From the NCBI GenBank assembly GCA_964445435.1, contig CAYUKU010000001.1:118942-182941 (forward strand): 64,000 nt of DNA. Reading direction: 5' to 3'. Shown here piece after piece: positions 27,477 through 57,292 of this stretch. The translations under genes were made by a program, and so were the position numbers. The DNA comes from an uncultured Gammaproteobacteria bacterium (lineage in GTDB: Bacteria; Patescibacteriota; Microgenomatia; UBA10105; UBA927). The stretch's first letter is position 1. Every line of letters begins with the position of its first letter. A model generated the notes under the pieces. The model saw nothing but the letters and a program-made list of their open reading frames with translations. It had not been told where the DNA came from and searched no databases.

Positions 27477-27564
27477 TGGCGGAGAGTGTGGGAGTTGAAC
27501 CCACTCATCGCTATTCGCGATGCAGGTTTAGCAAACCTGTGCCTTACCGTCCGGCCCACTCTCC
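27477..27564 (-). tRNA. tRNA-Ser (anticodon GCT), type II, CCA encoded
   Basis: Hand-folded: acceptor GGAGAGT, anticodon loop TTGCTAA (GCT), long variable arm, T-arm GGTTCAACTCC, 3' GCCA. Confidence 0.85.
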
Positions 27565-29064: not shown

Positions 29065-29076
29065 GCCCCTATTATA

Positions 29077-34954: not shown

Positions 34955-34955
34955 T

Positions 34956-35324
34956 ATGACTCATCAATTGCTCGCCCAAACACTCAATCTCCCCTGGGGA
35001 TCAGGAGGAGAAACCAAAATCCAAGGCCCCTTGAAAGGAAGTGCGTTTGGGCTGGGCGGCGGAGAAAATTTTACCCTCGGCACCATCATAAGCCGTTCTA
35101 TGGACTACATCTTTATCTTCGCGGGCGTGGGGCTGCTTCTGATGCTTCTTGCCGGTGGATTTACGTTCCTCACAAGCGCGGGCGACTCCAAAAAACTGGA
35201 ACAGGGCAAACAGCAGCTGACCAATGCACTTCTGGGATTTGTGATCATCTTTGTTTCCTTCTGGCTCGTGCAGGCTTTGGGGTATATCTTCGGGCTTGAA
35301 TCAATCGAGAATATTTTCCAGTAG
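34956..35324 (+). CDS. VirB2/TrbC-like T4SS pilin paralog
   Basis: Leader MTHQLLAQTLNLP resembles leader of the 45101 paralog (MEHTLLAQLRNPV); core IFIFAGVGLLLMLLAGGFTFLTSAGDSKKLEQGKQQLTNALLGFVIIFVSFWLV. Confidence 0.6.
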   Translation: MTHQLLAQTLNLPWGSGGETKIQGPLKGSAFGLGGGENFTLGTIISRSMDYIFIFAGVGLLLMLLAGGFTFLTSAGDSKKLEQGKQQLTNALLGFVIIFVSFWLVQALGYIFGLESIENIFQ

Positions 35325-41327: not shown

Positions 41328-42482
41328 TTATTTCCCTCCCCGTGCAAGCGTTTTGTGCGCTTTCACCAACGATCCTTCTTCAAGAGATGAAAGAAGCGAC
41401 ACTTCCCCGGCAAGGACACTGGCTGCCACTATTTCTGCAAACTGCCGACTATGCTCTCCGTCGTTACCCCCTGCTACACCCAATATCGTAAGGGCTTCCG
41501 TTTGTGTGGCAAGACCAGTCCCTCCACCCACCGTGCCTACCATCAGATCGGGCATACAAACATTGATATACAGGGCATCACCGTCTACCTCACAGGTGGT
41601 TATCCCGCAGCTCGCCTCGCTTATGTGGCCCGGGTCTTGCCCGGTTGCCAGAAACAGCGCGGCAACCACGTTAGCGTACTGGGCATTAAATCCCATGCTG
41701 CCGCTTATGGCGCTTCCGATCATGCACTTGGCGAGCCAGACGTCATAGACTTTTTTTGCAGATGTTTTCAAAACGCTTGAAAGTATCGGTGCGGGAATGA
41801 CTGCCTCTGCCCACACTTTGGTTCCCCGGTTTTCAAGTATATTGAGCCACGCCGGTTTCTTATCGATGTCGAAATTTCCTGCGACCGCCACGCACGAAAC
41901 ACCCGTTTTTTCTTCGATATACGAAGCGATAGCCTGGGAAGCAATCGTCACCATATTCATACCCATCGCGTCCCCGGTGTGGAATACAAACCGGACATAG
42001 CGATAGCGCCCGACACCGCGGGTGAAAAGCTTCTCAAGCGTCAGGTGCCGCGATATGTTCCCTGCGACTTCCCGTAGCTCGTCCAGGTGCTCCTTAAGAA
42101 ACCGGTATAACCGGTCACTTTCTTCCAGATTTTTCACACGGAATACCGGACCGCGCGTCGCACCCACCCGGTGGCTGTCCACCGAGGCGCCGCCGGATAG
42201 GGTGATTGCTTTGCACCCCCGGTTGACTGACGCCACGAGCGCGCCTTCAGTCGTCGCAAGAGGAATGTAATACTGCCTCCCGTCCCCCTTTGGGGATTGG
42301 ACCTTTAAAGGTCCGGCAATTCCCAAAGGAATCTGCGCTATCCCGATCATATTTTCACAATTGCGGGCTGCCGCCACTTGCTCGTCCAGGGTGAACGAGC
42401 CTATATGGGGCATCGTGACACCGAGCTCTTTCTCAAGGGCCTTCCGTCGGTCTGCCACTTTTGTATATGTACGAAGGTTCAT
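41328..42482 (-). CDS. HMG-CoA reductase, class I catalytic domain only
   Basis: ENMIGIAQIPLGIAGPL, ATTEGALVASVNRGCKA motifs; ORF-track N-terminal extension to 42833 overlaps the upstream gene in another frame, so start taken at MNLRTY (42482). Confidence 0.8.
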   Translation of the reverse strand: MNLRTYTKVADRRKALEKELGVTMPHIGSFTLDEQVAAARNCENMIGIAQIPLGIAGPLKVQSPKGDGRQYYIPLATTEGALVASVNRGCKAITLSGGASVDSHRVGATRGPVFRVKNLEESDRLYRFLKEHLDELREVAGNISRHLTLEKLFTRGVGRYRYVRFVFHTGDAMGMNMVTIASQAIASYIEEKTGVSCVAVAGNFDIDKKPAWLNILENRGTKVWAEAVIPAPILSSVLKTSAKKVYDVWLAKCMIGSAISGSMGFNAQYANVVAALFLATGQDPGHISEASCGITTCEVDGDALYINVCMPDLMVGTVGGGTGLATQTEALTILGVAGGNDGEHSRQFAEIVAASVLAGEVSLLSSLEEGSLVKAHKTLARGGK

Positions 42483-43096
42483 AGAAACGGAATGCGAAAA
42501 ATTCCCAGCCGATACATCAAAACGCTGTATGCGCCAAGAAGCGGAAGCACGACCACACACACGATCGTAATTTTCCCCAAATCCAGCTTCAGACCAAACC
42601 GCAATGCCAAGTACCCCAAAATGACTTTCCAAAACAAAAGCGTCGATGAAAAGAGGAGATACAGAGCGCTGAAAAGGACGCCATAAACGCTGGTCGTTCT
42701 GGGGGGAGGAAGAAGAACGTACAAAAGCGAGGTTGACAAAAACCACAGAAGCGTGGGGATAAGCGTATATCCCCATCCGAGAAGAAGCCCCCTGAGAGTC
42801 CCTTTCGCGCCAACCAGCCTCCCCGCGGTCCAAAAAAGAAACACCGTCAAAAGATACGTAACAAGCACGGCGACGGCTAATACCACAAAGTGACGGGTGA
42901 GCAAAAACGGCCGAAACGATGCTGTTTTCACGAGCGCAGCGCTTGCGAAATAGGTCGACAACAGGAGGGCTATCCCCACCAGTTCCCAGAGATTCCCCTC
43001 GCGCTCAATCCGCCGGTATGTTTCATACGGGCGGGAAAGAATCCCGACAATCGTTCGGCCAAACGATACCGCAATAGTAATTGCCTTCTCATCCAT
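42479..43096 (-). CDS. Polytopic membrane protein (Yip1-domain-like), hypothetical
   Basis: 205 aa, 5 TM helices; 4-bp overlap with HMGR start suggests co-transcription. Confidence 0.5.
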   Translation of the reverse strand: MDEKAITIAVSFGRTIVGILSRPYETYRRIEREGNLWELVGIALLLSTYFASAALVKTASFRPFLLTRHFVVLAVAVLVTYLLTVFLFWTAGRLVGAKGTLRGLLLGWGYTLIPTLLWFLSTSLLYVLLPPPRTTSVYGVLFSALYLLFSSTLLFWKVILGYLALRFGLKLDLGKITIVCVVVLPLLGAYSVLMYRLGIFRIPFL

Positions 43097-43185: not shown

Positions 43186-43416
43186 CTAAAATCCTCTTTG
43201 AAGTATGCTTGTGAGGATCACGACTGCCGAACCGATGAGGAAATAGATACCCGAAACCAGAAGAGTCGCAGCCAACACGAGAGCTGGCCAGGGCATGACC
43301 TTCAGCCGTCTGACAATCGCCTTATAATACGGCGTCAGAGGGCCCACGGTTTGAGGAGGCAACTCGGTGACCTCCTCCCAGCGTTTCACAAACTTGTTAT
43401 AGAGTGCGTCTGTCAT
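43186..43416 (-). CDS. Small membrane-anchored protein, putative anti-sigma factor
   Basis: Directly follows the ECF sigma gene (5-bp gap if start at MTDALYNKF); C-terminal TM helix ALVLAATLLVSGIYFLIGSAVVIL; ORF-track start would overlap the sigma gene by 116 bp. Confidence 0.4.
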   Translation of the reverse strand: MTDALYNKFVKRWEEVTELPPQTVGPLTPYYKAIVRRLKVMPWPALVLAATLLVSGIYFLIGSAVVILTSILQRGF

Positions 43417-43420: not shown

Positions 43421-43972
43421 TCAGATGGATATAAAAAGTTCCACGAATGCTTTCCGGGCACGGAATAATTGCGATTCCGCGCTTTTGAATGAAAGGGCAA
43501 ATTTGCGGGCAATCTCGGCAACCGAAAGATCGTCAACGTATTTGGACACCAGAAGCATCCGGTATCGTGGCATCATACGACCCAAGACTGCTTGAATTTT
43601 CTCTTTCAGAAACACCACATCAAGCTCCTCTTCGGGATTAAGCATCGGCGAAACGATCGCCTCAAGCCCCGGCATTTGGGAAAACACGAGCTGTTTAAGC
43701 TTCTTGCGGCGGTAATAATCGATGATCTTGTGATGGCAAATAGAGAAAAGGAAGGTTTTCACGCTTGATTTCCCGTGAAAGTCGCGGATAGCCTCAAGAA
43801 ACGCAAACAGCGTGTCCTGCAAAATTTCCTCAGCATCAAGCGTGTTGCCGACCTTCCCATGGATAAATGCAGAAAGTTTCGGCGTATATCTGCGGTAAAA
43901 TACCGAGAGTGCGCGCCGGTCGCGGGCAAGAATGTGCCGGATCAGCTGCTGATCTTCTTCGAGGTGTTCCAT
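43421..43972 (-). CDS. ECF-type RNA polymerase sigma factor (sigma-70 regions 2 and 4)
   Basis: Region 2 DAEEILQDTLFAFLEAIRDF and region 4 HTH LSVAEIARKFALSFKSAESQLFRARK. Confidence 0.8.
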   Translation of the reverse strand: MEHLEEDQQLIRHILARDRRALSVFYRRYTPKLSAFIHGKVGNTLDAEEILQDTLFAFLEAIRDFHGKSSVKTFLFSICHHKIIDYYRRKKLKQLVFSQMPGLEAIVSPMLNPEEELDVVFLKEKIQAVLGRMMPRYRMLLVSKYVDDLSVAEIARKFALSFKSAESQLFRARKAFVELFISI

Positions 43973-44025
43973 ACCAGGAATGCTTCAAAGCATATCATAT
44001 CACCCAGCAGGATCGCAAAGCAGAA

Positions 44026-44054
44026 TTGACACTCCCCACCTCTTGCCATACACT
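44026..44054 (+). promoter_or_regulatory. Putative sigma-70-like promoter for pilin array (TTGACA-17 bp-TACACT)
   Basis: Perfect -35 hexamer at 44026-44031, 17-bp spacer, -10-like TACACT at 44049-44054, ending 6 bp before the first pilin ATG (possible leaderless or very short leader). Confidence 0.3.
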
Positions 44055-44060
44055 TATGGT

Positions 44061-44369
44061 ATGGAGCGTGTTTACGCGGCAGTTAATATCGAGGAGGTTT
44101 TCCCGCCCGCCGAAAATTTCAACCAAATAGGGCCCCTGGTGTCCGTTATCGTAAAAAACGCCTTTATGCTTGCCGGCGTCATTACGCTTGTATTGATCGT
44201 TTTGGGGGGATTTGGGATAATAGCTTCTGCCGGAGGAGATACCAAGAGGCTTGACCAGGGTAAAAAAACAATTACCGGCGCAGTGGTCGGTCTTCTGGTC
44301 ATTGTAGGATCTTTCTGGATCGTCCAGATAATCGAAACGCTCACCGGATTGACACTTATTCCGAAATAA
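44061..44369 (+). CDS. VirB2/TrbC-like pilin paralog 1 of tandem array
   Basis: Core LAGVITLVLIVLGGFGIIASAGGDTKRLDQGKKTITGAVVGLLVIVGSFWIV; start taken at MERVYAAV (ORF track 43980). Confidence 0.6.
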   Translation: MERVYAAVNIEEVFPPAENFNQIGPLVSVIVKNAFMLAGVITLVLIVLGGFGIIASAGGDTKRLDQGKKTITGAVVGLLVIVGSFWIVQIIETLTGLTLIPK

Positions 44370-44370
44370 T

Positions 44371-44721
44371 ATGGACGACATCGTCGGCAAAATAGATAAC
44401 CCGCTTCCCTCAGCCTACAAAAACCTGGCCGGATCGGCCGGACAGGCGGGGGGACTTATTCTTTTCTTCTCCAACGTCCTTCGGCTGGTGTTTGTGATCG
44501 CGGGCATTTACGCATTCATCAACTTCATTATCGCAGGCTACACCTACATGAGCGCGGGCGGAGACTCCAAATCCATCGCAAGTGCGTGGGCGCGCATCTG
44601 GCAGACGCTTCTTGGACTCGTCGTTGTTGTTGGATCATTTGCCATCGCGTCTCTTATGGGACAGCTTATTTTCGGTGACCCGCAGTATATTCTCAATCCG
44701 ACACTATACGGACCCAAATAA
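44371..44721 (+). CDS. VirB2/TrbC-like pilin paralog 2
   Basis: Core IAGIYAFINFIIAGYTYMSAGGDSKSIASAWARIWQTLLGLVVVVGSFAIA; 1-bp spacing from previous gene. Confidence 0.6.
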   Translation: MDDIVGKIDNPLPSAYKNLAGSAGQAGGLILFFSNVLRLVFVIAGIYAFINFIIAGYTYMSAGGDSKSIASAWARIWQTLLGLVVVVGSFAIASLMGQLIFGDPQYILNPTLYGPK

Positions 44722-44724
44722 TCT

Positions 44725-45096
44725 ATGGCAACAGGGGGACAACCATTAGGACCAATTGGCGGCGAGGGGCTTGGCCCGTTTGGCAATATCGGGAAGTCGT
44801 CCGATAAATATGCAGGTATTACCAGCGCCCTTGACACTGTCAGCTCTATTGTCGGATTTATGACTATCGTTGCCGGCATCTGGTTTCTGTTTATGCTTCT
44901 TTTTGCCGGATACGAGTGGATTTCCGCAGGCGGCGATACGAAAAAAATCGGAAGTGCGCGAGACCGCATCACCCATGCGTTTACCGGACTGGTTATCGTC
45001 GTAGGCGCCTGGAGCTTGCTTGCGGTTGCCGGACAATTTTTCGGCTACGATATTCTCGTCAACCCGAGAGACGTCATTAATAATTTAGGGCTCTAA
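44725..45096 (+). CDS. VirB2/TrbC-like pilin paralog 3
   Basis: Core VAGIWFLFMLLFAGYEWISAGGDTKKIGSARDRITHAFTGLVIVVGAWSLL. Confidence 0.6.
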   Translation: MATGGQPLGPIGGEGLGPFGNIGKSSDKYAGITSALDTVSSIVGFMTIVAGIWFLFMLLFAGYEWISAGGDTKKIGSARDRITHAFTGLVIVVGAWSLLAVAGQFFGYDILVNPRDVINNLGL

Positions 45097-45100
45097 ACTT

Positions 45101-45457
45101 ATGGAACACACGCTTTTGGCACAACTAAGAAACCCGGTCCTCCCTAACATCATCGGCGGAGGGAACACGCCAGATTACAAAACCGGCGGCACCGCCCTGG
45201 GAAGCCTTGTAAGCAGCATCATAGGAGCACTTTTTATCGCAGGTTTTTTGCTTGCGTTTTTCATGCTTCTGCAGGGCGGCCTTAAATGGATTACCGCCGG
45301 AAGCGACAAAACCAAACTTGAGGGCGCGCGTGATGCAATCACAAATTCTATCATCGGCATTATCGTCGTGGGGGCTGCATACGGAGTCACTGTGGTTGTG
45401 GCGAGATTTTTCGGACTGGAACTCGAGTCGCTTCCTATCCCGTCCATAACGCAGTAA
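45101..45457 (+). CDS. VirB2/TrbC-like pilin paralog 4
   Basis: Core IAGFLLAFFMLLQGGLKWITAGSDKTKLEGARDAITNSIIGIIVVGAAYGV. Confidence 0.6.
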   Translation: MEHTLLAQLRNPVLPNIIGGGNTPDYKTGGTALGSLVSSIIGALFIAGFLLAFFMLLQGGLKWITAGSDKTKLEGARDAITNSIIGIIVVGAAYGVTVVVARFFGLELESLPIPSITQ

Positions 45458-45494
45458 CGCTTGTGAAACGTCGGGGTTGACAATGCCGACAAAA

Positions 45495-45523
45495 TTGCGC
45501 AACAATGAGAAGTAAGCTATAAT
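45495..45523 (+). promoter_or_regulatory. Putative internal promoter within pilin array (TTGCGC-17 bp-TATAAT) followed by consensus SD AAGGAGG
   Basis: Perfect -10 TATAAT at 45518-45523 with 17-bp spacer from TTGCGC; the intergenic gap before paralog 5 is the only long one in the array; SD AAGGAGG at 45538-45544, ATG at 45551. Confidence 0.45.
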
Positions 45524-45550
45524 ACGCGGTGTAGCGTAAGGAGGATTCAT

Positions 45551-45880
45551 ATGAAGGTTTTCGCAGCAGATCCGCAAATCACCATCAAGCAGCCGACAAA
45601 CATCAAAATCGGCGACGTCGGACAGCTTATTTCTGCAGTGGTCGGAACCCTCCTTATTATCGCGGCACTCCTTGCGTTCTTCTACCTTATTCTCGGTGGT
45701 ATCCAATGGATAACCTCCGGCGGTGATAAGGCAGGCATGGAAGCCGCCCGCAATAAGATTACCCACGCGATCGTCGGACTGATCATCGTGGGAGCAGCTT
45801 GGGCCATCATGCTTCTCGTCCAGAACTTCCTGGGCGTGACGATCATCGGCGGGCAGCTCAACTTCCCGACGCCGTTTTAG
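45551..45880 (+). CDS. VirB2/TrbC-like pilin paralog 5
   Basis: Core IAALLAFFYLILGGIQWITSGGDKAGMEAARNKITHAIVGLIIVGAAWAIM; strongest RBS of the array. Confidence 0.65.
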   Translation: MKVFAADPQITIKQPTNIKIGDVGQLISAVVGTLLIIAALLAFFYLILGGIQWITSGGDKAGMEAARNKITHAIVGLIIVGAAWAIMLLVQNFLGVTIIGGQLNFPTPF

Positions 45881-45904
45881 CAAGAGTCGTGCTACAATAG
45901 GCTC

Positions 45905-46249
45905 ATGAACTTCTTGTCGAAATTCCCTTCTTTTTTCGTGCACGCGTCGCAATTGGGGAACCTCGAAGACACGGACGTGGCGACCATTCAGTCCCTTGAG
46001 ACATTGTTTGCCAATTTCGTCAAAACGATTGTCGCGCTTGCGGGAGTAGCGCTATTTATCATGTTTGTCGTTGCAGGATTCACGTATCTGTTTGCCGGAG
46101 GGGATGCCAAGAAATCAGAACAAGCCCGCGGAACGCTCTCAAATGCCGTCATCGGTCTCGTCGTCGTCGTTGCCGCGTATCTTATCGTCAGAATCATCAG
46201 CGTCTTTACCGGTGTCCCTGAGGTCTTGCAGTTTGCCATACCAAAGTAA
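45905..46249 (+). CDS. VirB2/TrbC-like pilin paralog 6
   Basis: Core LAGVALFIMFVVAGFTYLFAGGDAKKSEQARGTLSNAVIGLVVVVAAYLIV. Confidence 0.6.
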   Translation: MNFLSKFPSFFVHASQLGNLEDTDVATIQSLETLFANFVKTIVALAGVALFIMFVVAGFTYLFAGGDAKKSEQARGTLSNAVIGLVVVVAAYLIVRIISVFTGVPEVLQFAIPK

Positions 46250-46264
46250 GATAATACGAATGTC

Positions 46265-47794
46265 ATGAAAAAGATCGTCCGCTTCGGCCTTATACTTCTT
46301 TTTGCGCTCATTACTCTTCCTTCGCTGTGGCCAATATTCGCCCAAACACCCACTCCTGCTGCCAGCAGTTCGTGGAAGCACCCAAGTGAACAGGCGGTCG
46401 GAGACGCTATTTACGGCGGAGACGATGTAAATCTCGAATCTTCCTGGAGTATCGGTAATACGGTCGGCATGCTCGATGTCGCGGATAAAATCGGCGGCAT
46501 TCTGTGCTCTTCAAGTACCGGCGATGCCACCAAGTGCGTCGGTGAAAGCACCGTCGGCACGCTGGGGAGAGTCATTGCCAAGACGTTCATCGAGAAACCG
46601 GCAGACACCGGCATGTGGATTGCCGATGTGGGTCACACGCTCGGGTTTGCCCCCAAGCCCGTCTATGCTCAGGGTGTCGGGTTCTCCGGACTGGCTCCGC
46701 TTCTTCCTATCTGGAAGGCATTCCGAAATATCGCATATCTTCTCATGGCGCTTGTGATGATTGTGCTTGGATTTATGATCATGTTTCGGAAAAAAATTGA
46801 TCCCAAGACCGTCGTAACTGCCCAAAATGCAATTCCCCGCGTTGTCATCGCCCTTATCCTCATCACGTTCTCGTACGCGATCGTAGGACTTGCCATAGAT
46901 GCCATGTACATCGTTTTATACTTCGCAATCGCGCTGTTTAAGTCCACCGGGTATCTGCCTGCTCCCGATCCTGCCACACTCACCGGGTTTTTTGCGGAAA
47001 AAACAGGACTGACGACAGCCGAAAAGTTGTATTCACAGGGGGGGCTCTGGTGGAATTTCGGCGCTATTGAGTGGGATCCGTATAAAATTCTCTTCGGCTT
47101 CAACACCCAGGGGTGGAGTCCGGCCATAACCATAGGCTCGAGCGTTCTGGCGCTCCTTTCTGCTATATTCGTCATCCCCGCGACATTTTTCGCAGCACCC
47201 GTCGTCGGAGGCATTCTCACCATCGGCTTTGCCGCGATGCCCCTTATCCATCTTCTTCTGAGTATCGCTATGCTGTACTTGTTTATCCGGCTTGCGTTTT
47301 TCTTTATTTCCGCGTATATCCAGATTATCATCTCGCTTCTGATGTCTCCGCTTCAGCTTCTTGCCGAAGCCTTCCCCGGCAGCAACGCATTCAGCTCATG
47401 GTTTAAGAATCTGATCGCCAACTTAGCCGTCTTCCCCATCGGGGGGGCGATGTTTATGCTCTCGGCAATATTCACGCAGTTTACGAGAGACCCTTCCGTG
47501 CTTCCGCAACAGTCCATCTGGACACCGCCATACACCAGTATAGGCTTCGTCAATAACACCACGTCCATAGCATCAATCGTTGCGCTTGGCATCCTCTTTG
47601 CCATTCCGCAGGTGGCAGGATCAGTGAAGGAGTCCCTGAAAGCCAAGCCTGCTGTACCGATGATGGACTTCGGACAGGCGGGCGGCACTGCCATGAACCT
47701 CTTGTCTACTGCGTACTACTTCAAGATGCTCGCCCCGAGCGGTCTGTGGGACAAAATCACTGGTGGCGGCGGGAAGAAAGATGCGCACGGGTAA
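46265..47794 (+). CDS. VirB6/TrbL-like polytopic T4SS membrane protein (signal peptide, extracytoplasmic N-domain, 6 or more TM helices)
   Basis: 509 aa; signal peptide; about 120-aa N-terminal soluble domain then a multi-TM core and Gly-rich C-terminal tail; directly follows the pilin array on the same strand, as VirB6-like genes do in other T4SS loci. Confidence 0.5.
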   Translation: MKKIVRFGLILLFALITLPSLWPIFAQTPTPAASSSWKHPSEQAVGDAIYGGDDVNLESSWSIGNTVGMLDVADKIGGILCSSSTGDATKCVGESTVGTLGRVIAKTFIEKPADTGMWIADVGHTLGFAPKPVYAQGVGFSGLAPLLPIWKAFRNIAYLLMALVMIVLGFMIMFRKKIDPKTVVTAQNAIPRVVIALILITFSYAIVGLAIDAMYIVLYFAIALFKSTGYLPAPDPATLTGFFAEKTGLTTAEKLYSQGGLWWNFGAIEWDPYKILFGFNTQGWSPAITIGSSVLALLSAIFVIPATFFAAPVVGGILTIGFAAMPLIHLLLSIAMLYLFIRLAFFFISAYIQIIISLLMSPLQLLAEAFPGSNAFSSWFKNLIANLAVFPIGGAMFMLSAIFTQFTRDPSVLPQQSIWTPPYTSIGFVNNTTSIASIVALGILFAIPQVAGSVKESLKAKPAVPMMDFGQAGGTAMNLLSTAYYFKMLAPSGLWDKITGGGGKKDAHG

Positions 47795-47806: not shown

Positions 47807-50800
47807 TCACGAATGACCGCCACCGCCACCCGCGCCTGAAGCATCCTGCACGCCCTTCTTTGCACTTCCAAATGCACCCATAGCAAGAAGCGCGCCTCCG
47901 ATAAGCACGAACGCATACGCATTATATAAGCGCACGGTCTTGAATCCTGCAATCTGAATCCCGAACTTCCGGTGCATTTTGTGGGTAAAGTCAGGCATGT
48001 GAGTATGAAACTTCGTCTCCAATGCCGCCTCTACCTCGTGCTCGAGATGGTCCAAATCCACCCGACCCATGGCCGGTGCTCCTTGCCCTACCGCGCGCTG
48101 AGCCGCAGAAAGATCCATCGTCGTTCGATCATCACTAATACCTGATAAGTCGGCCCACAAATCTTTCACAACGGCCTGACGCCAACCATAGAACAACGTC
48201 TGCCCGACCGGTGCCTTGGCGCCCTCATAGCCACCGCTGAAGAGAATCGTGTCCACAAACGGCTTGAAATGCTGCATGAATGTCTTGCCATCCTTGGCGC
48301 CCAGTATGCCGATAAGGTCCTTCGCCATGGCATTCACTGAGTTTTGCGTATCTCCGGCCCAGCGCGGTAATCCGCCACCCGCACCGTGACCGCCCCGCAC
48401 TGAACTGATACGACCGGACCATTTGAGTTCCTTGCGTTGATGATCGGGATTATTGTCCTTAATGCCGTCCAGAAATTTGATACGCGGGTCGATCGTGTTC
48501 ACGGTCGTGAAATGAGCGGCGTACGCGGGATTTGCAAGATCTTCGATAATATGGGGATTGAGAGCAAAATCCGATGCGGCCTTCATCACATCCAGGTACG
48601 CTTTTACGTTTTCTTCTGGCGTAAGACTGCTGTCGCCCGTGGCGACACAAACTTTTTTAAGTGCGGCCTGTTCATGCGGCGAATAGACGCTCATATCTCC
48701 ATTCCACTTGGAGTAGTCAATCGGCCCTTGCGGCGTTTCTATCAGTTTTCCCCCGCTCCATTCGCGGGTAAGCGCAAGCTCAGTGTCTACCATCGCCCGT
48801 CGCATTTCGGCAGCCTTGATGGCTCCCCGCACAAACTGTTCCGGATTATTCGCGTTATAGACAAGATTCTCGCCCATTGCCGCATCGTGGAACCGGCTGA
48901 ACAGTGCGGAATTTGTGGAAAACCATTCAAACGTCTTCTCATGCATCTTTTGAGCAAGCGCATCGATGCTTGCGATGGGATCAAACTTCCCCATTAAGAC
49001 GAATGTCTTGGTTTTGAGTGTCACCTCTGCATCATGAAACTTCTTATGATCTCCCGCAGTATCAAACAGGCCGCCTGCGTCCAGACGAGCCGTCTCGTGG
49101 AGCAGAACTCCATTCGTCATGCCGGTATCTGCGTCAACGACTTTATAGAGACCAAAGTCCTTGAGAGCATCGATCTGCGACCCTATTTGCCAACCGGAAT
49201 CTATGTAATGATACGCTCCTGAGAACCGGGCGTCCAAGAGCCGTCGCCCTTCCCGATAGATAATCTGCTCCTCCAAATCAGCCTTCGTCAGCTCTGAAAG
49301 CGTCTGGGGAGTTTGTCGTTGCAATCCCTCCCGAGTTCCGCCAAAGAGCTGACGCAGAAAACTGTCCTCTCTTCGTATGCGCAATGAGCCAAACGCTCGT
49401 GCGACTGTCGCCTGATCATCCAGATCGTTGATGTTGAAAGCCATTTTCACCAGACGGTTCCATTCCGCCTGCGCCGCCCGCCCCTCGGGTGTAGGCAAAT
49501 TCCGTATTTTGTCAAGCTGACCTAACCGCGCGCGCCAATACGTATCGAGACCCACCCGTGATGCTTCCACGGCAAACATCTTTCGCATGACGAGGGCACC
49601 GAAATCGCTCTTAATCGCCCACCGATCTACCAGCCATTTAAACGGGTTCATCGAGAAAATGATTTTTCCCTCTGCCGGTTGGCCAGCAAACTCAAGCGGA
49701 TTTCCACTCTGGTGCATCATCTCAATCGGGGTAGCGGCTTTGCCGAAGATCTGTGCGCGCTGACCAGTGGCTTCGATAAGCATCGAAACTTCTCTCACGG
49801 CCATCTCTATGTCCGTCTTCTCAATTCTACGCCGTATGATGCGTCCGTTTTCATCTTTTCTCACGTCTCCATTTGTGTCGTATTCAACGCTTCCTTCCCA
49901 CTCCTGAAACCGGTCATTATACATCCCCTTTTGAGTTTGAGCGTGTGCCCACATTTGATCGACTATTGCGTCTTCCATCACTTCAATTCTCCCTGCTGTT
50001 AACGCACGGATGTATCCGTTCTCATCCCAAATTTCTGCCGCAAAGCGCTGTTTAAACACGCCAAACACCTCAAGATTGAGTCCGTTACGCTCATTTAACG
50101 TGCGCGGATACCCCTCGTCGCCGAAAATCGCGTAAACGCTCTTAAGCTTGTCCATCTCCGTATCAAGCTCAAGGCCTCCTTTTAAACGCAATAGCGCGCC
50201 GCGGATAGAAATAGTTCTGGAGATCTCTTTATTCCATTCAAGATACCCCTCGTTCATTTCCCTGTACCACTTATGATTAGTGTTGAGGACGCGGTTGCCA
50301 TCGCTGTCCAAAACCGGACTTCCATCAGGACGGACTTGGTAGATCGACTCTCCGCTTATTTGCGTAATCTCATCCCAGTTTCTCGGATCCCTCAAGTAAG
50401 CGAGGCGATTTTTGCGGTAATCATCGCTTGCGGCGTATTGAATAAGCTGAGAGTAATTGCGGTCAGCGGCCTCTTCCCACTTTCCTTCAAAAACGTTCAC
50501 AGTGGCGTTTATGAAATCCTGCTTGCTTCTGGCAAACACATCCACCCCGCGCCATGACCGCTTCATTTCTTCCAGAGAAAGGTATAAGCTGCTCCATCCC
50601 CGCTCAAGCTCACGCTCGGTGTACCGTTCCCTTCCAACACTAAGCGCCGTCTCCCGGAATGTTTCATACTTTTGGGCCAACTCCGGCTGGTCCGCCATGA
50701 GCCGTCTCCATGTATAGCTATCAGTATTGTGGTCCTGCATGGCAGTCATAAAATCAAAAATCTCATTTCGTACCCGCGGATCGTTCATGTTCCCGTGAGC

Positions 50801-52078
50801 ATCATGAAGGATTTTGTTGAAATGCTCCAGGCGGGATTTGAGATTTCGTGCCGCTACCCGCTCGGCAGGAATTGCCCTTGGACCTGCCACTTTATCCAGA
50901 TACTTTAACGCACCCGCGCTAAATTCATCGCCTCCGGGCGCTCTGCGCCTCGCACCACGCGCTCTTCCGCGCCCCCGACTCGTCCCAGCGGTGCCGATTG
51001 CCTCAAGCGCATCCTCAGCCCGATCGCCAAACTCGGGACTCACCTCATCGTGGTACATCTGGGCGACCTTCTCGGCGAAGCGTTTACGGAACGTATCACG
51101 CTCGCGCACCTGCTCATCAGTTGATCCCTGCCCGAGCGCCTTAATCTGAGAGCCCTTGGCAAGCAAAAACTCCTTGGTCCACGCATCTTCGCCGGCCTGT
51201 GCAATGTCATACACAACCTGCGCAATATCGGGATCTTTTATCAGCTCGCCATCAGAAACCAACCAGGATAATTCATTCGTCGTTCGTATTGTTTCTTGTA
51301 TCTTCCGATTCGCTTCGGCAGGTTCAACCGTACGCGTAATTTCCGGTCCCAACTTAAAGTCATCTAGAATCTGCGTCTCCAGATCCTCCGCCCACGCTTG
51401 GGTGTTCTCGGGATGCGCGCTGTGTGCGTGGTAATACACTGCCTGCTCGTCTTTCGTAATGCGCTCCACGCTTGCGCCCTTAAACGCCGGGTCATTTTTC
51501 ACGACTTCATCAAACCTCTTTCCTGAAGAGCCCTTAATCGCATCCCAATTGCGATATCCCCATTCGTACGCCGCCTGCCGCACTTCTCGCAAAACCATCT
51601 GATCCGACTCGCTTAGAGTCGTCATCTGCGGCATGTCTTTGAGGATGGTGCGCACCTTCGTCCATTCCTCTGCGCTGGGCGTGCTCCAGTTAATTTCCGG
51701 CGGCTGTTTATTCGGCGAAAGGCGGCTGATGCCGCCCAAAAGCCGCTGGTTATCTATAGGAACCGACGCGCGGAACTGATCTGACACGAGTACCGTCATC
51801 TTCTGCTCCGCAGAAAGCGGAGATCCCGCCTCTTGTCCGGCACGGATCATGGCTTTGCGGACAACTTCCGTATCCTGAACTTTGGGCTGGGTTTCTCCTT
51901 TGGTTTGAGGCGAGACATCAGGAGCTTTTTTTGGTTCTACTTTCTTCCCTCGTTCTTTCGCCTTTGCCTGGGTATTTGCGGTTGCAGCTTCCGCCTGCAC
52001 GACCATCGGAAGCGGTTTGTTTTTCCCCGCGTTTTCAAAAAGCGATTTCAGTGCATCGAAGAGTTCTTTTGACGCCAT
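47807..52078 (-). CDS. Giant (1423 aa) tail-anchored hypothetical protein, no recognisable domains
   Basis: Single uninterrupted 4.27 kb ORF; Arg/Gly-rich patch SRGRGRARGARRRAPGG; single C-terminal TM helix LYNAYAFVLIGGALLAMGAF followed by a Gly-run; downstream of T4CP-like gene and nadD on the same strand. Confidence 0.6.
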   Translation of the reverse strand: MASKELFDALKSLFENAGKNKPLPMVVQAEAATANTQAKAKERGKKVEPKKAPDVSPQTKGETQPKVQDTEVVRKAMIRAGQEAGSPLSAEQKMTVLVSDQFRASVPIDNQRLLGGISRLSPNKQPPEINWSTPSAEEWTKVRTILKDMPQMTTLSESDQMVLREVRQAAYEWGYRNWDAIKGSSGKRFDEVVKNDPAFKGASVERITKDEQAVYYHAHSAHPENTQAWAEDLETQILDDFKLGPEITRTVEPAEANRKIQETIRTTNELSWLVSDGELIKDPDIAQVVYDIAQAGEDAWTKEFLLAKGSQIKALGQGSTDEQVRERDTFRKRFAEKVAQMYHDEVSPEFGDRAEDALEAIGTAGTSRGRGRARGARRRAPGGDEFSAGALKYLDKVAGPRAIPAERVAARNLKSRLEHFNKILHDAHGNMNDPRVRNEIFDFMTAMQDHNTDSYTWRRLMADQPELAQKYETFRETALSVGRERYTERELERGWSSLYLSLEEMKRSWRGVDVFARSKQDFINATVNVFEGKWEEAADRNYSQLIQYAASDDYRKNRLAYLRDPRNWDEITQISGESIYQVRPDGSPVLDSDGNRVLNTNHKWYREMNEGYLEWNKEISRTISIRGALLRLKGGLELDTEMDKLKSVYAIFGDEGYPRTLNERNGLNLEVFGVFKQRFAAEIWDENGYIRALTAGRIEVMEDAIVDQMWAHAQTQKGMYNDRFQEWEGSVEYDTNGDVRKDENGRIIRRRIEKTDIEMAVREVSMLIEATGQRAQIFGKAATPIEMMHQSGNPLEFAGQPAEGKIIFSMNPFKWLVDRWAIKSDFGALVMRKMFAVEASRVGLDTYWRARLGQLDKIRNLPTPEGRAAQAEWNRLVKMAFNINDLDDQATVARAFGSLRIRREDSFLRQLFGGTREGLQRQTPQTLSELTKADLEEQIIYREGRRLLDARFSGAYHYIDSGWQIGSQIDALKDFGLYKVVDADTGMTNGVLLHETARLDAGGLFDTAGDHKKFHDAEVTLKTKTFVLMGKFDPIASIDALAQKMHEKTFEWFSTNSALFSRFHDAAMGENLVYNANNPEQFVRGAIKAAEMRRAMVDTELALTREWSGGKLIETPQGPIDYSKWNGDMSVYSPHEQAALKKVCVATGDSSLTPEENVKAYLDVMKAASDFALNPHIIEDLANPAYAAHFTTVNTIDPRIKFLDGIKDNNPDHQRKELKWSGRISSVRGGHGAGGGLPRWAGDTQNSVNAMAKDLIGILGAKDGKTFMQHFKPFVDTILFSGGYEGAKAPVGQTLFYGWRQAVVKDLWADLSGISDDRTTMDLSAAQRAVGQGAPAMGRVDLDHLEHEVEAALETKFHTHMPDFTHKMHRKFGIQIAGFKTVRLYNAYAFVLIGGALLAMGAFGSAKKGVQDASGAGGGGGHS

Positions 52079-52705: not shown

Positions 52706-54892
52706 TTATTTATTCACCTTCTTGGCATACCGCTCGCGGGAGGAGCGGATGACTTTTTCTCTATTCTGGTTTCTGCTTCTGGGAAGGGGCAATGTCTTCG
52801 CAGAAAACGGCGAACTCGTGTGATTGTCAATTGACAGCTTCATGACGACCTCATAGTTACCCATCGCCACGAGCTCGTTTTCCTCATACTTCTCGCCGAA
52901 TTCCCGCGACAGAATCCGTGCGTCTGCCGCGCCCACCCCAAAGGAAACAATGGATCCCGCGTTGCCGAATATCGCCTTCTGGACATCTTCGTCAATCTGA
53001 CCAATATACTGGTTTGCAAGCGTCAAATCCAGGCGGTATTTACGCGCCTCGGAGAGAATTTTTATAAATGATGTGGTGGCGAAATTCTGAAACTCGTCAA
53101 CGTACAGATAAAAGTCGCGCCGCTCCCCTTCTGCCAGATATACGCGGTTCATAGCGGCAAGCTGCATTTTCGTGATGATCATGGCCCCCAGAAGCGCACT
53201 GCTGTCTTCTCCGAGCTTGCCTTGAGACAAGTTTACGAGAACTATCTTCCCCTGGTTCATCATGCTCTCAAGATCAACTGTTGACGTGGGGCTTCCGACG
53301 ATATTTCTGATTGTTTGTGATGAGAGAAACTGCCCGACCTTGTTGAGAATCGGCGACACTGCTTCTGAGCGCATTTGTGGCGACATTTTCGCAAACTCAT
53401 TGAGCCAGAAATTTTTGAGAACCTGGTCTGCCATCTTCTCAACGACCTTGCCGCGGTATTTTTCGTTGGTGAGAAGCTCGGGCACCTGAAGAAGCGTCGA
53501 ATTGGGAACATTCGTAAGGGTCAGAATGGTATTTCTCAGAATATATTCGAGCCGCGGCCCCCAGCTTAGGTGGTACAGTTTGTAAAAAATCGAAACGATG
53601 CCGCTACTGACCAGCTCGCGATAGGCCGTGTTTCTTACTTCCAGCGGATTCAGGTGAAATGGATACTCAATATCTGATGGGTCCAAATACGCAACGTCGT
53701 TAATGCGGTGCGATGGCACGTAATCCAAGAGGATATCCGTTAAGTCACCGTGAGGGTCGACGACGGCCACCCCTTCGCCGTTTTTCATGTCATTGATCGC
53801 CATATTGGCGATCATCGTTGATTTACCGGTACCCGTCTTTCCGACGATATACACATGTTTCCTGCGGTCTGCCTTCTTGATGCCAAATGTGGCGAGCTTG
53901 TTTTTGTATTCCGTGCGTCCGAAGAAGTTAATCTGCTTTTTCTCTTCCTCATTGTCCGTTGCCACGGGCAGATTCTCCGGAGCCTCACCGGTCAACTGGG
54001 AACCCCAGGAGATATTTTTAATCATGGAAAGCGCAAGTCCCGGCGGATGCCAGAGGGAGGCAAGCTCACTGGCGTTGAGAACCTGGAATCGGGGCGCAAC
54101 TGAACCGTTTCTCTCCACAAAGCCCTGTTCGAGTTTTTTCTTCTGCCAGAACGCGGGCTCGCTGATCACCAATCCGTTTCCCTCTCCCAACGTGTACACC
54201 CCAAACGTCCCACCCACTCCGTGAAGCAGCTCGTTTGCACGCGCGTCGGAGGCGGCCACCGACACGAGCCGAATTGCCGTTCCAAAACCAACCTGGGCGA
54301 TTTTGGTCTCAATGAGGCGCGCATGGGGATGGGCCTTCATGCGACCCGTCGTTGATGACGTGTCGGGAACTCCCCTTGCAACAATCGCGGAAGCCGAATG
54401 CTGCCAATTGGTTCCTGCCGGAGTAATGCGAAACTGGATAGCGACCGCCTCCCCAACCGGAAGCTTGGCCAGCTGTCCCAGAAGGCTTGCCAGAATATCC
54501 AAGTCTTTTACGTCTTTGTACGTTTTGAGAGGATAGTAGTACGCATTGGATAAGACGACCTGTGCAATCTTATGCGGAAGGGCGAGAAAGTGCGGCGCGT
54601 AATCCTCAACCGGCGCCAAAAGCACTTTCGGGTATTGCGCGGTCAGTTGACTCTCCACATACGTCTGGAGTGACGAAGGTACGCCGACGAAAAAATGAAT
54701 CCGCGAGTTGACGGCAACCAGCTCAAAACTGAAATACTTCGGCGCATGACGGGGACGAAACAACATGGAAAGAAACCCGCCATGGCCACCTCCGGCGCCT
54801 AGCGCGGCAAAAATCTGCTCCATTGCGGCAGGCGTTTCTTCTGAGTCGCGGCTATTTTTTACTTCCAGAAGCACAAACGGAGATTCCGTCAT
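52706..54892 (-). CDS. VirD4/TraD/TrwB-like type IV coupling protein-like ATPase (FtsK/HerA superfamily)
   Basis: Walker A IVGKTGTGKST...VVDPHGD; C-terminal block ILSEARKYRLDLTLANQYIGQIDEDVQKAIFGNAGSIVSFGV resembles the TrwB_AAD/T4CP DNA-binding ATPase motif; no obvious N-terminal TM (atypical for T4CP). Confidence 0.55.
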   Translation of the reverse strand: MTESPFVLLEVKNSRDSEETPAAMEQIFAALGAGGGHGGFLSMLFRPRHAPKYFSFELVAVNSRIHFFVGVPSSLQTYVESQLTAQYPKVLLAPVEDYAPHFLALPHKIAQVVLSNAYYYPLKTYKDVKDLDILASLLGQLAKLPVGEAVAIQFRITPAGTNWQHSASAIVARGVPDTSSTTGRMKAHPHARLIETKIAQVGFGTAIRLVSVAASDARANELLHGVGGTFGVYTLGEGNGLVISEPAFWQKKKLEQGFVERNGSVAPRFQVLNASELASLWHPPGLALSMIKNISWGSQLTGEAPENLPVATDNEEEKKQINFFGRTEYKNKLATFGIKKADRRKHVYIVGKTGTGKSTMIANMAINDMKNGEGVAVVDPHGDLTDILLDYVPSHRINDVAYLDPSDIEYPFHLNPLEVRNTAYRELVSSGIVSIFYKLYHLSWGPRLEYILRNTILTLTNVPNSTLLQVPELLTNEKYRGKVVEKMADQVLKNFWLNEFAKMSPQMRSEAVSPILNKVGQFLSSQTIRNIVGSPTSTVDLESMMNQGKIVLVNLSQGKLGEDSSALLGAMIITKMQLAAMNRVYLAEGERRDFYLYVDEFQNFATTSFIKILSEARKYRLDLTLANQYIGQIDEDVQKAIFGNAGSIVSFGVGAADARILSREFGEKYEENELVAMGNYEVVMKLSIDNHTSSPFSAKTLPLPRSRNQNREKVIRSSRERYAKKVNK

Positions 54893-55218: not shown

Positions 55219-56631
55219 ATGGAACAACATCCGGTACCACAAAACGTCACCACATTTCAGTTTCGACTGATCGGCGACATGACCATTAAACAGTTCGGCT
55301 ATCTGGCCGGAGGAGCAATCTTGGCGTATATCTGCTATAAGCTCCCGCTGCCGTTTTTCTTCACCTGGCCCATGGCAACGATAGCAGCTCTCGCAGGTGT
55401 TGGATTTGCGTTCGTTCCGGTCGAGGAACGCCCAATGGACATCTGGGTCATGTCGTTCATAAAAAACGTCTACAACCCGACGCAATTTGTGTGGGAAAAA
55501 ACAGCCGAACCTCCAAAGCCCGCCCCCGCGGCTCCCCCAGCACCTCGACCTGTTGTTGCGCCGCATCCAAAACCAACCATGGGAACACCCGCACCCTCTG
55601 CGGTTTCCCACGCACAGCCTCAAGCTCCAGCCGCGCAAACAGGGCGCCAAGTCTCAGACGTCGTGGCGGGGATATTTACACAGCCAAAACCGACCCAGCC
55701 AATGCCAGCGCCCGTCGGGCAGACCGTGCCGACCCCTGCATATCATCCAAGCCAAACGGCAGGGAAAAAAGTTGGCCCCTTTGACTGGCTAGTCCGGCTA
55801 TTTGCACCAGCTGCGCGGCCCGCGACGAGCCCGCAACACGTGGTGCCCTATCAAAGCGCACCAACGTCGTTATCGGCTGCACCCTCAATTTCTGCTCCCT
55901 CGGTAACGGGCCGACATCTGGATCTCACGCCGCCGCCAAAAGTCGTTCCTACGGAAACGCAAATGGCAACGGTCCAAAAAAAGGAAACTGAGTTGGAAAC
56001 GAAACTTCAGGAACTGAAGGTAGAATTGGAAACCAAAACACAAACACAGGCGCGGGTGCTGGAACTGCAAAAACAGCTGACCGATATGCTCTCTGAGCGA
56101 GATCGCATGAGAAAAGAGCTCGAAGCGCTTCGCGCCAAAGCGGCGCCTCCCCCTGCGCCAACCGCCGTCGTACCGCCGAAGCCGGCAGACACAAATACGG
56201 TTGTCTCGACACCCCCTCCGCAAACTGCCGCAGCGCCCCAACGACCACAGGGTCCGACGGTCAAAATAATTACGCCTCAGGAGGCGGTGAAAGCAGGGCT
56301 TCCGCGGCTCACCACATTTCCCAACGTTGTCACGGGCATCACGCGCGATTCGGACAACAACCTCCTCCCCGGCGTTCTTGTCACCGTCAAGGACCACGAC
56401 GGCGTGCCGGTGCGCGCCCTGAAAACAAACCGACTGGGACAATTTGCTGCTTCAACACCGCTGGGGAACGGGGTATATTTCGTGGAGATCGAAGACCCGC
56501 GAGGCCGCTACACATTTGACCGCGTGCAGATCACGCTCAATGGATCCATTGTGCCCGCTCTCGAAATCATCGCAAAAAGCCAAAAGGAAGTCGCCCGCGA
56601 AAGGCTCGCCAAGGAAATTTTCGGAAGCTAA
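55219..56631 (+). CDS. PrgI-like T4SS membrane protein with long Pro-rich linker, coiled coil and C-terminal beta-sandwich-like domain
   Basis: N-terminus FQFRLIGDMTIKQFGYLAGGAILAYICYKLPLP matches the PrgI-family motif and two-TM topology; then about 150 aa Pro/Ala-rich low complexity, a coiled coil (about 250-300) and a C-terminal about 110-aa domain. Confidence 0.55.
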   Translation: MEQHPVPQNVTTFQFRLIGDMTIKQFGYLAGGAILAYICYKLPLPFFFTWPMATIAALAGVGFAFVPVEERPMDIWVMSFIKNVYNPTQFVWEKTAEPPKPAPAAPPAPRPVVAPHPKPTMGTPAPSAVSHAQPQAPAAQTGRQVSDVVAGIFTQPKPTQPMPAPVGQTVPTPAYHPSQTAGKKVGPFDWLVRLFAPAARPATSPQHVVPYQSAPTSLSAAPSISAPSVTGRHLDLTPPPKVVPTETQMATVQKKETELETKLQELKVELETKTQTQARVLELQKQLTDMLSERDRMRKELEALRAKAAPPPAPTAVVPPKPADTNTVVSTPPPQTAAAPQRPQGPTVKIITPQEAVKAGLPRLTTFPNVVTGITRDSDNNLLPGVLVTVKDHDGVPVRALKTNRLGQFAASTPLGNGVYFVEIEDPRGRYTFDRVQITLNGSIVPALEIIAKSQKEVARERLAKEIFGS

Positions 56632-56632: not shown

Positions 56633-57292
56633 ATGGTACAAAAAATTATTCCCATAAGATCGACAACCCAACTGTTCGTTGAAATTGAAACGATCGACCA
56701 CGACATAGTCGTATATCAGGATGGCTCGGCCAGCCTCGTCATCACCACAACAGCGGTTAACTTTGGCCTTCTGTCTGAGCGGGAACAGGACGCAATCATT
56801 ACCGCATACGCGGGACTTCTTAATTCGCTGTCCTTCCCCATTGAGATTCTTATACGCACGCAGCATAAAGACGTGACTGCATACCTGCGGCTTCTGGAAG
56901 AACAGGAACGCAAACAGAAAAACCCCAAGCTCCAAAAAAGTATCCATGACTACCGGCTGTTCGTGGCAGCAACTGTCAAGGAGAAGGATGTACTAGATAA
57001 GAAATTCTATATCATCATTCCGTTTTCGAACCTGGAGCTGGGAGCTTCCCCAACTGTATTGTTCGGCAGCAAGAAGAAAGGCCTGCCATATCCACTCTCA
57101 TATATTTTCGAACGCGCATTGACCGTCCTCAACCCGAAACGCGACCATATCCTACGACTTCTTAACCGCGTCGGACTTCAAGCAAGTCAATTGACAAACC
57201 AACAGCTGGTAAAGCTCTTTTTTACAACCTATAACGCGGGGGTTCCATTGCCCGATGACGAAACAGTAACCCACGCGCTTACCCGTACATGA
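56633..57292 (+). CDS. Hypothetical T4SS-associated protein (220 aa), possibly VirB4 N-terminal-domain-like
   Basis: Starts 1 nt after PrgI-like stop and ends 1 nt before VirB4 ATG; no ATPase motifs; ORF-track N-terminal extension (from 56444) overlaps the PrgI-like gene and is rejected. Confidence 0.45.
   Translation: MVQKIIPIRSTTQLFVEIETIDHDIVVYQDGSASLVITTTAVNFGLLSEREQDAIITAYAGLLNSLSFPIEILIRTQHKDVTAYLRLLEEQERKQKNPKLQKSIHDYRLFVAATVKEKDVLDKKFYIIIPFSNLELGASPTVLFGSKKKGLPYPLSYIFERALTVLNPKRDHILRLLNRVGLQASQLTNQQLVKLFFTTYNAGVPLPDDETVTHALTRT

Follow-up and report, generated by a model that had tools for sequence, protein, structure and literature searches.

A conserved set of eight divergent T4SS_pilin-family genes with a VirB6-like gene on a Patescibacteria chromosome

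A previous survey of the Patescibacteria found 441 VirB2 arrays of 2 to 11 genes in 383 assemblies, described VirB2-like arrays as especially abundant in Microgenomatia, and speculated that the arrays adapt to different host strains (Quinonero-Coronel et al. 2025, PMC12102498). In S. epibionticum, a Saccharibacterium, six such genes form an essential array (PMC10633639, PMC12857230), and the role of the T4SS (type IV secretion system) was called "completely unknown" for Saccharibacteria (PMC11665869). In the one species tested, epibiotic growth requires both the T4SS and the pilin series belonging to it. Here we analyzed a stretch of 64,000 nt of contig CAYUKU010000001.1 (the window, in which all positions are counted), which carries six tandem genes for small hairpin proteins (p1 to p6), a VirB6-like gene directly downstream and a distal pair of the same family (P7 and P8). 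An earlier note on this DNA held eight pilin-like genes to be unusual; they are not, given the published arrays of 2 to 11 genes and the essential six of the Saccharibacterium. The locus is an instance of a published kind and no new kind of system: the six tandem genes plus a pair, the VirB4 gene and the Gottesmanbacteria homologues agree with the published definition of a Patescibacterial VirB2 array (PMC12102498), which asks for at least two pilin genes, next to each other or with one non-pilin gene between them, in a genome that has a Patescibacteria-type VirB4.

The arrays described from S. epibionticum ML1 (SEML1_0006-0019), from N. lyticus TM7x and in the survey resemble the present one in that they consist of tandem, divergent PF18895/VirB2-like genes with ~25-30% identity within an array, and lie in or near a chromosomal, relaxase-free, MPF-FATA-like T4SS close to the replication origin. 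The array of S. epibionticum also has six members (PMC12857230). However, the present locus comes from Gottesmanbacteria and has two further conserved copies 9 kb off, and its array is shown here to be a fixed set of orthologues in which a single member is outstandingly conserved. With VirB2/TrbC/TraA (PF04956 and relatives) the hairpins share a small two-helix form, a short positive loop, and genes encoded with VirB4 and VirB6. They differ in that seven of the eight lack a long cleavable signal peptide and that many paralogues take the place of one, in a monoderm host with no VirB5 and no outer-membrane complex. Several VirB2-like genes for one T4SS also occur in Bartonella, Anaplasma and Rickettsia, but those families are thought to be strain-variable (immune evasion, host range), whereas the present genes keep a stable copy number and sequence and evolve under purifying selection. 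Type II pseudopili and type IV pili offer a working analogy, with one abundant subunit and several conserved low-copy paralogues encoded beside it; their pilins form an unrelated family with a different fold and assembly ATPase, and no homology is implied. The Mbov_0395 family (NF045849) of integrative and conjugative elements of Mycoplasma likewise comprises small hairpin proteins of a monoderm MPF-FATA-type element. Seven of the eight hairpins matched it below threshold (best, 25.2 bits versus a cut-off of 40), scores so far under the cut-off that the likeness is a lead only.

We show herein that the array of eight is real, with the same genes in more than 50 other genomes, far beyond chance, and that the paralogues behave as fixed specialized parts, not as variants. 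The explanation that we favor, with a probability of roughly 0.55, is a fixed heteromeric T4SS structure composed of all eight hairpins, in which p5, singled out as the likely main building block, would be the major subunit. In a more specific and less probable form, with p5 and seven position-specific minor subunits, the architecture would, if real, be one unseen in any characterized T4SS and the probable host-contact or uptake device of these epibionts.

The hairpin proteins and their family

The hairpin genes and the gene downstream of the array are listed below, with scores against PF18895 (T4SS_pilin) and, for some, against a hidden Markov model (HMM) of the clade.

34490-34954, +, P7, distal hairpin protein, 154 aa, Sec-type signal peptide, four-Cys N-domain; PF18895 E=8.6e-5, 23.0 bits; clade HMM E=6e-21
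34956-35324, +, P8, distal hairpin protein, 122 aa; PF18895 E=1.4e-8, 35.1 bits
44061-44369, +, p1, hairpin protein, 102 aa; PF18895 E=4e-5, 24.0 bits; clade HMM E=7e-31
44371-44721, +, p2, hairpin protein, 116 aa; PF18895 E=2.8e-4, 21.3 bits; clade HMM E=2e-31
44725-45096, +, p3, hairpin protein, 123 aa, Gly-rich N-tail; PF18895 E=1.9e-8, 34.7 bits
45101-45457, +, p4, hairpin protein, 118 aa; PF18895 E=4.4e-7, 30.3 bits
45551-45880, +, p5, hairpin protein, 109 aa, candidate major subunit; PF18895 36.1 bits
45905-46249, +, p6, hairpin protein, 114 aa; PF18895 E=3e-13, 50.1 bits
46265-47794, +, divergent VirB6-like polytopic membrane protein, 509 aa, N-terminal signal peptide; assigned by fold and position

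The earlier note had proposed six consecutive small two-helix genes at 44061-46249 and two further paralogues some 9 kb off at 34490-35324, and both proposals are borne out, the six by the list of open reading frames (ORFs) and by PF18895 matches to all, P7 and P8 by matches to the same family. Its spacing of 1-4 bp for five of the six genes is wrong and applies just to p1-p4 (four genes), as the successive gaps from p1 to p6 are 1, 3, 4, 93 and 24 bp; p6 is followed after 15 bp by the 509-aa gene, and P7 and P8 are 1 bp apart. The maximal ORF of p1 begins at 43980. This start was rejected, since the gap to the divergent sigma-factor gene would shrink to 7 bp and gene callers assign 102-104 aa to the orthologues of several relatives. 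The start at 44061 is better because of these calls and because a conserved TTGAC(A/T)-17-TACACT element ends ~7 nt upstream of its ATG. Pairwise identity among the eight proteins is 26-46%, with p5 the closest paralogue of p4 (46%).

All eight proteins matched PF18895 in a Pfam search (E, 3e-13 to 2.8e-4). Five of them (p3, p4, p5, p6 and P8) passed its gathering cut-off of 26.6 bits, and p1, p2 and P7 fell just under it (E, 4e-5 to 2.8e-4); 24 of 25 clade members also matched. The clade HMM recovered exactly eight hairpin genes in the window, each at E<=6e-21, a figure that is not an independent test because the alignment behind the HMM includes these eight sequences. Membership in PF18895 can thus be taken as established at the sequence level for all eight, and the T4SS-pilin identity that had been proposed is confirmed to this extent. 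The suggested HMM comparisons were otherwise less favorable to a VirB2/TrbC assignment: the best match to PF04956 (TrbC/VirB2, cut-off 27.9 bits) was that of p6 at 22.6 bits (E=1.2e-4), followed by p2 at 15.6 and p3 at 12.1, with no match for the other five, and only one of 25 clade members matched this model at E<=0.01. The PrgI model (PF12666) matched none of the eight hairpins, the PrgI match of the locus belonging to a separate 470-aa gene. An hhalign comparison with six authentic VirB2/TrbC proteins from annotated plasmids placed TM1, loop and TM2 in a sensible register and was not significant (P=0.008), and the pilin profile found no significant match to solved pilins among PDB chains. 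It is plausible that the hairpins work like VirB2, and homology to canonical VirB2 is unproven by these comparisons.

The eight proteins have a common layout, a hydrophobic helix, a loop of the (S/A)(G/A)G(D/N/S)xK type and a second hydrophobic helix. An alignment of the eight copies, as the earlier note had advised, gave a conserved core of fixed length and variable tails: the core spans 71-72 residues (29 + 19-20 + 19-23), with no internal indels except that p1 has one additional residue in the loop and the second helix of P7 is shorter, while N-tails range from 23 to 74 aa and C-tails from 7 to 17 aa. Identity between paralogues is 19% in the N-tail versus 25-33% elsewhere. The AlphaFold2 (AF2) model of p5 contains helices at residues 20-55 and 60-94 joined by an SGGD turn, with a pLDDT (predicted local distance difference test) of ~76-94 over residues 21-90. 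The helical hairpin proposed earlier is therefore supported by prediction, both by this model and by two hydrophobic segments in each of the eight. Seven of the eight carry two to four K/R in the loop, and the tails are neutral or acidic. By the positive-inside rule, both termini are predicted to lie outside and the loop inside, as in VirB2-type pilins.

Only P7 has a signal-peptide-like N-terminus (by inspection). The other seven lack a long cleavable signal peptide and start with a stub of 5-8 residues, M-x-x-(V/L)-(F/L/Y)-A-(A/Q), or, in p6, with a stub of 14 residues; their maximal ORFs permit no longer N-terminus. Orthologues of p6 in two related loci (L006 and L007) have a full signal peptide. 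The stub resembles the A-x-A↓Q cleavage site at the end of the full signal peptides of P7 (..PTFA↓QTPP), the VirB6-like protein (..PIFA↓QTPT), the p6 orthologues of L006 and L007, and authentic VirB2 (..PAAA↓Q). The stub may represent either the vestige of a signal peptide or a short leader that is processed.

Conservation, selection and expression signals

Relatives were scanned with the p5 alignment as query, one genome per species, and 80 loci were returned. By a count with our own HMM, the VirB6-like gene is immediately preceded by exactly six hairpin genes in 52 of the 62 evaluable loci. A chain of six genes is present in 54 genomes; when these are compared with one another, a hairpin protein finds its best match at its own position 16493 times out of 17172 (96%), and identity between paralogues within a genome averages 30% with a maximum of 58%. 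Orthologues of p2, for example, are 51-98% identical. The distal pair is kept as well: wherever the flanking sequence of a locus extends far enough, P7-P8 is found between uppS and a SpoIID-like gene, and P8 stays beside uppS in related loci L008, L024, L047, L051, L052, L055, L061, L062, L066 and L074. The surrounding block comprises a sigma-factor gene divergent from p1, then p1-p6 and the VirB6-like gene, then on the opposite strand a ~1400-aa ORF, a CTP-transferase gene and a type IV coupling protein (T4CP) gene, and finally the forward-oriented PrgI, TraC-like and VirB4 genes. It is conserved in contigs whose VirB6-like identity ranges from 87% down to 41%.

Pairwise ratios of nonsynonymous to synonymous substitution (dN/dS) against three close relatives were 0.00-0.09 for p1-p6 and 0.04-0.06 for the VirB6-like gene; the tails gave 0.07-0.09, about twice the 0.035-0.05 of the cores. 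These values are approximate, with dS mostly above 1 (saturated), and more distant relatives were not computable. One-to-one orthology, fixed copy number and purifying selection together argue against copy-number churn, gene conversion and diversifying selection, and they support an old, fixed set of specialized subunits. The earlier note had offered host or partner specificity, antigenic variation and mixed-subunit filaments as possible reasons for the multiplicity, and had advised a test for diversifying selection. With 96% positional orthology in 54 genomes, six copies in 52 of 62 loci, and a dN/dS that stays low even in the tails, the first two fit poorly. Assembly of mixed subunits is the only one of the three that suits a fixed orthologous set.

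One member stands apart. Across the 54 genomes p5 has a mean identity of 77%, versus 52-60% for the other five, and it has the lowest dS. Its orthologues are 100, 100, 98, 91, 90 and 75% identical where the VirB6-like protein is 86, 80, 81, 52, 52 and 44% identical. The signals upstream of p5 and p1 are the following.

45458-45550, +, p4-p5 intergenic control region, 93 bp, conserved; TTGACA at 45477-45482, TTGCGC at 45495-45500, AACAAT at 45501-45506, TATAAT at 45518-45523, Shine-Dalgarno (SD) sequence AAGGAGG at 45538-45544; p5 ATG at 45551
44026-44054, +, p1 promoter-like site TTGACA-17-TACACT, 10 of 12 consensus matches, ending 7 nt before the ATG at 44061

The promoter-like spacing ahead of p5 is TTGCGC-17-TATAAT, and AAGGAGG ends 6 nt before the ATG. 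All of these control elements are kept in seven genomes with VirB6-like identities of 44-87%. RGGAGG occurs upstream of p5 in 36 of the 54 genomes, and among these TTGACA is found in 32 and TATAAT in 27. An internal promoter and SD sequence before the fifth paralogue had been predicted, and the elements are indeed present and conserved in relatives. An SD sequence is rare in this window: of 45 long ORFs scanned, eight had a 4-mer core and two a match of at least five bases. Among the pilin-like genes p5 alone has a strong ribosome-binding site, one of about three in the window. Its highest conservation, its own conserved promoter region and its rare strong SD sequence make p5 a candidate for an abundant, major subunit.

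The other signals are of a different kind. The p1 site is conserved as TTGAC(A/T)-17-TACACT in L001, L003, L004 and L007, and as TACACT alone in L008; a -10 box 7 nt from the ATG implies a leaderless p1 transcript. A conserved TACAAT lies 6-7 nt before the p6 ATG, and a -10 box also stands just before the start codon of the VirB6-like gene. Many genes of the window have a -10-like hexamer (TATAAT, TATACT, TACAAT or GATAAT) ending 6-9 nt before the start codon, for example those at 2351-4567 (-), 16260-17108 (-), 22285-23196 (+), 28393-29064 (-), 32006-32659 (-), 52706-54892 (-) and 61551-62564 (+). Together with the rarity of SD sequences, this suggests that mRNAs of the window are mostly leaderless, a pattern followed by p1, p6, P7 and the VirB6-like gene. 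The genes p2-p4 are probably translationally coupled.

Two related loci show other arrangements. In L008, p6 and the VirB6-like gene are separated by an inserted toxin-antitoxin pair of the nucleotidyltransferase/HepT-like type (7422-8142). L088 (4168-11501), from another Patescibacterium, carries a chain of 11 hairpin genes by our own HMM.

The VirB6-like protein, poly-hairpin fusions and possible assemblies

The 509-aa protein encoded after the array gave no Pfam or NCBIfam match beyond a 15-bit trace of pLS20_p028, with the TrbL/VirB6 and PrgH models unmatched; its profile had 0 matches to PDB sequences, and none of the 120 best homologues in its family of 922 has a Pfam domain on record. 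Its AF2 model (pLDDT 77) was compared by Foldseek with 350,542 PDB chains, and the top nine matches were all chains from entries of the R388 TrwJ-TrwI/VirB6 stalk (best E=0.01, probability 1.00). TrwI/VirB6 was its best fold match in two structure searches, with modest scores. The closest PDB folds are VirB6/TrwI (R388) and DotA (Legionella), which are likewise polytopic and encoded in a T4SS cluster. The 509-aa protein differs from them in its low identity (9-17%) and in lacking a match to the TrbL/VirB6 or PrgH HMMs, and is about twice as long as TrwI, with an N-terminal signal peptide and an additional extracytoplasmic domain. Two structure methods agree and the gene context fits, and we describe the modeled protein as VirB6-like and highly divergent. 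A VirB6-like gene after the array had been proposed from the letters alone, and the predicted fold bears this out though no HMM detects VirB6. By HMM, VirB6 homologues were found to be "scarce" in Microgenomatia, "suggesting extreme sequence divergence" (PMC12102498). The 509-aa gene family is probably the VirB6 that HMM surveys rarely find in this group.

Of 1.84 billion representatives searched with the hairpin profile, 87,115 matched at E<=1e-3. At least two hairpin domains were found in a single polypeptide for 134 of the best 150 matches, a ranking that favors multi-domain proteins. The fusions, among P0241-P0390, contain 2-17 hairpins (up to 11 as counted by our own HMM, up to 17 stretches by HMMER), and many of them begin with a P7-like unit that bears the sole signal peptide. 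One fusion, P0241, combines six hairpins with a signal peptide and a Cys motif, and is encoded amid four further PF18895 genes. For P0241, the sole fusion checked in DNA, an artifact of read-through in gene calling was rejected, as its contig encodes it in a single unbroken ORF (L095, 1777-3435). Membrane topology permits such fusions, since the two ends of a hairpin would lie on the same side of the membrane, and they indicate that different hairpins are neighbors within one assembly. They may also serve as a handle on subunit packing.

How the parts might act together can be sketched on this basis. The eight hairpins would not be interchangeable but anciently diverged, specialized subunits kept intact across the clade, and would most likely come together in a single heteromeric conduit or filament that crosses the envelope. 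The divergent VirB6-like protein would serve as the assembly platform, with VirB4 and the T4CP providing power. The abundant major subunit would be p5, and p1-p4, p6, P7 and P8 would be present in few copies or at particular positions, like the minor pilins that prime or cap type II and type IV pili. For expression, p1 would be read from a leaderless transcript, with p2-p4 coupled to it through the 1-4-bp junctions; p5 would use its own promoter region and strong ribosome-binding site, and p6 and the VirB6-like gene would each depend on the -10 box just before the start codon. A more specific form can be put forward tentatively, in which p5 and seven position-specific minor subunits make up a defined heteropolymeric conjugative-type pilus or an envelope conduit of a monoderm, built on the divergent VirB6, with the poly-hairpin fusions as covalent versions of it.

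Several points weigh against a fixed mixed structure with p5 as its major subunit. A T4SS pilus has yet to be seen in any Patescibacterium (PMC12857230). With dS saturated in most comparisons, dN/dS is a rough figure, and the promoters are consensus matches with conservation, not mapped transcription starts. A tight contact with the machine, and not abundance, could be what keeps p5 so strongly conserved. Finally, long covalent chains of hairpins are easier to picture as a membrane ring or sheet than as a classical helical pilus of free subunits.

The principal alternative is that the hairpins stay in the membrane as a fixed hetero-oligomeric ring or sheet within the T4SS translocon, or as a lipid-facing collar, of a monoderm with no extracellular pilus. 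We consider this rather unlikely. Monoderm MPF-FATA systems are generally without a pilus (PMC12102498, PMC10633639), a VirB5-like tip protein was not found in the window, seven of the eight hairpins have no signal peptide, and poly-hairpin proteins exist with as many as 17 units in tandem, covalent chains that are more easily fitted into a membrane array than into a helical filament. However, the family is named and modeled as a pilin, and the topology and loop charge match those of VirB2-type pilins. The variable tails are predicted outside the membrane, where a filament would expose them, and reviews favor a pilus-like structure (PMC12857230). Extraction of the hairpins from the membrane is, moreover, compatible with all results.

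More doubtful still is the suggestion of the earlier note and of the literature that the paralogues are interchangeable alternative major pilins, expressed from separate promoters to change the surface for different hosts or to evade recognition. At least three promoter-like sites do lie in the array (before p1, p5 and p6), the tails of the paralogues diverge more than their cores (19% identity in the N-tail versus 25-33%), and the analogy to VirB2 paralogues of Bartonella and Anaplasma was raised in the survey (PMC12102498). Nonetheless, the positional one-to-one orthology in 54 genomes, the constant copy number of six and the strong purifying selection, tails included, are hard to reconcile with exchangeable variants. 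The within-genome identities (mean 30%, maximum 58%) give no sign of recent duplication or gene conversion, and the pilin series is essential in S. epibionticum (PMC10633639).

It is very improbable that these are generic small proteins with two transmembrane segments, bearing a misleading Pfam name and no link to a T4SS: although three of the eight score under the Pfam gathering cut-off, solved pilins gave no significant match, and P7 and P8 are found at a distance of 9 kb, next to genes of cell-wall and isoprenoid synthesis, the array is tied to the VirB6-like gene in 52 of 62 loci, within a conserved block with T4CP, PrgI and VirB4, and the pilin genes of S. epibionticum lie inside an essential T4SS cluster (PMC10633639).

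Neighboring genes, chromosome and organism

The genes on either side of the array are as follows.

42479-43096, -, Yip1-domain membrane protein
43186-43416, -, 76-aa ORF with a single transmembrane segment, anti-sigma-like
43421-43972, -, extracytoplasmic function (ECF)-type sigma factor, divergent from p1; Sigma70_r2 and r4_2
47807-52078, -, 1423-aa conserved protein, convergent on the VirB6-like gene; C-terminal transmembrane segment, Gly-rich tail
52706-54892, -, VirD4/T4CP-like ATPase, 728 aa; DUF87, TrwB_AAD_bind and TraG-D_C domains; synteny conserved
55219-56631, +, PrgI/VirB3-like protein, 470 aa, long Pro-rich extension; PF12666 PrgI E=1.2e-7
56633-57292, +, 219-aa gene between the PrgI-like and VirB4 genes; orthologues with a precomputed PF26593 TraC-like match, nothing in our own Pfam scan
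57294-59216, +, VirB4-type ATPase; P-loop_TraG E=9e-26, AAA_10 E=9e-16
59220-61535, +, M23 peptidase-domain protein; Peptidase_M23 E=1.4e-14
62569-63672, dnaN

The VirD4-like, PrgI/VirB3-like, VirB4 and M23 genes and dnaN all lie within 17 kb. Pfam matches to VirB4, PrgI/VirB3-like and T4CP-like proteins provide the gene content of an MPF-FATA-like system, and the T4SS setting surmised earlier finds support in these neighbors. The organism is a Patescibacterium, in keeping with the earlier surmise of an episymbiont-like one; named homologues come from Candidatus Gottesmanbacteria (Microgenomates, Patescibacteria). The locus is this clade's chromosomal, monoderm-type, MPF-FATA-like T4SS near dnaN. 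No relaxase domain was found among 42 ORFs of the window that were scanned, several ORFs of at least 100 aa lying outside that scan, in agreement with the survey (PMC12102498), and no VirB5-like tip protein was found in the window scans. From its position, the M23 protein is likely a cell-wall hydrolase of the T4SS.

An ORF of 1208-1433 aa occupies the position of the 1423-aa gene in all relatives examined. The 1423-aa protein itself, a possible T4SS substrate, adhesin or structural part, matched nothing in Pfam, in NCBIfam or among PDB sequences. On the other side, the sigma-factor, 76-aa and Yip1 genes adjoin the array as a trio, divergent from p1, in all relatives examined. The promoters of the pilin genes have a sigma-70-like appearance, so that a regulatory link from the sigma factor to the array is not evident.

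A mevalonate-pathway operon and uppS separate the two pilin sets. The maximal ORF for HMG-CoA reductase (41328-42833, -; 501 aa) has a TTG start and overlaps the Yip1 gene; its true start is probably internal, because orthologues measure 332-388 aa. The rest of the window contains rpoD, dnaG, PilB/PilC, tRNA and tmRNA genes. PilC-like (T2SSF) and PilB-like (T2SSE) type IV pilus genes are located at 9139-11995 (-), six tRNA genes (four Ser, two Arg) at 22112-27564 (-) and the tmRNA gene at 29076-29485 (-). The presence of dnaN, tRNA, tmRNA, rpoD and dnaG genes indicates that the window is chromosomal. ORFs of 552, 357 and 426 aa with no Pfam match, at 18008-21977 (-), lie in the only strongly AT-skewed stretch of the window (AT skew, 0.17-0.20).

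Records of metagenome-assembled genomes with a Gottesmanbacteria-type locus (among L009-L087) are often titled "uncultured Gammaproteobacteria bacterium" or "uncultured Pseudomonadales bacterium". These titles look like placeholder or wrong taxonomy labels.

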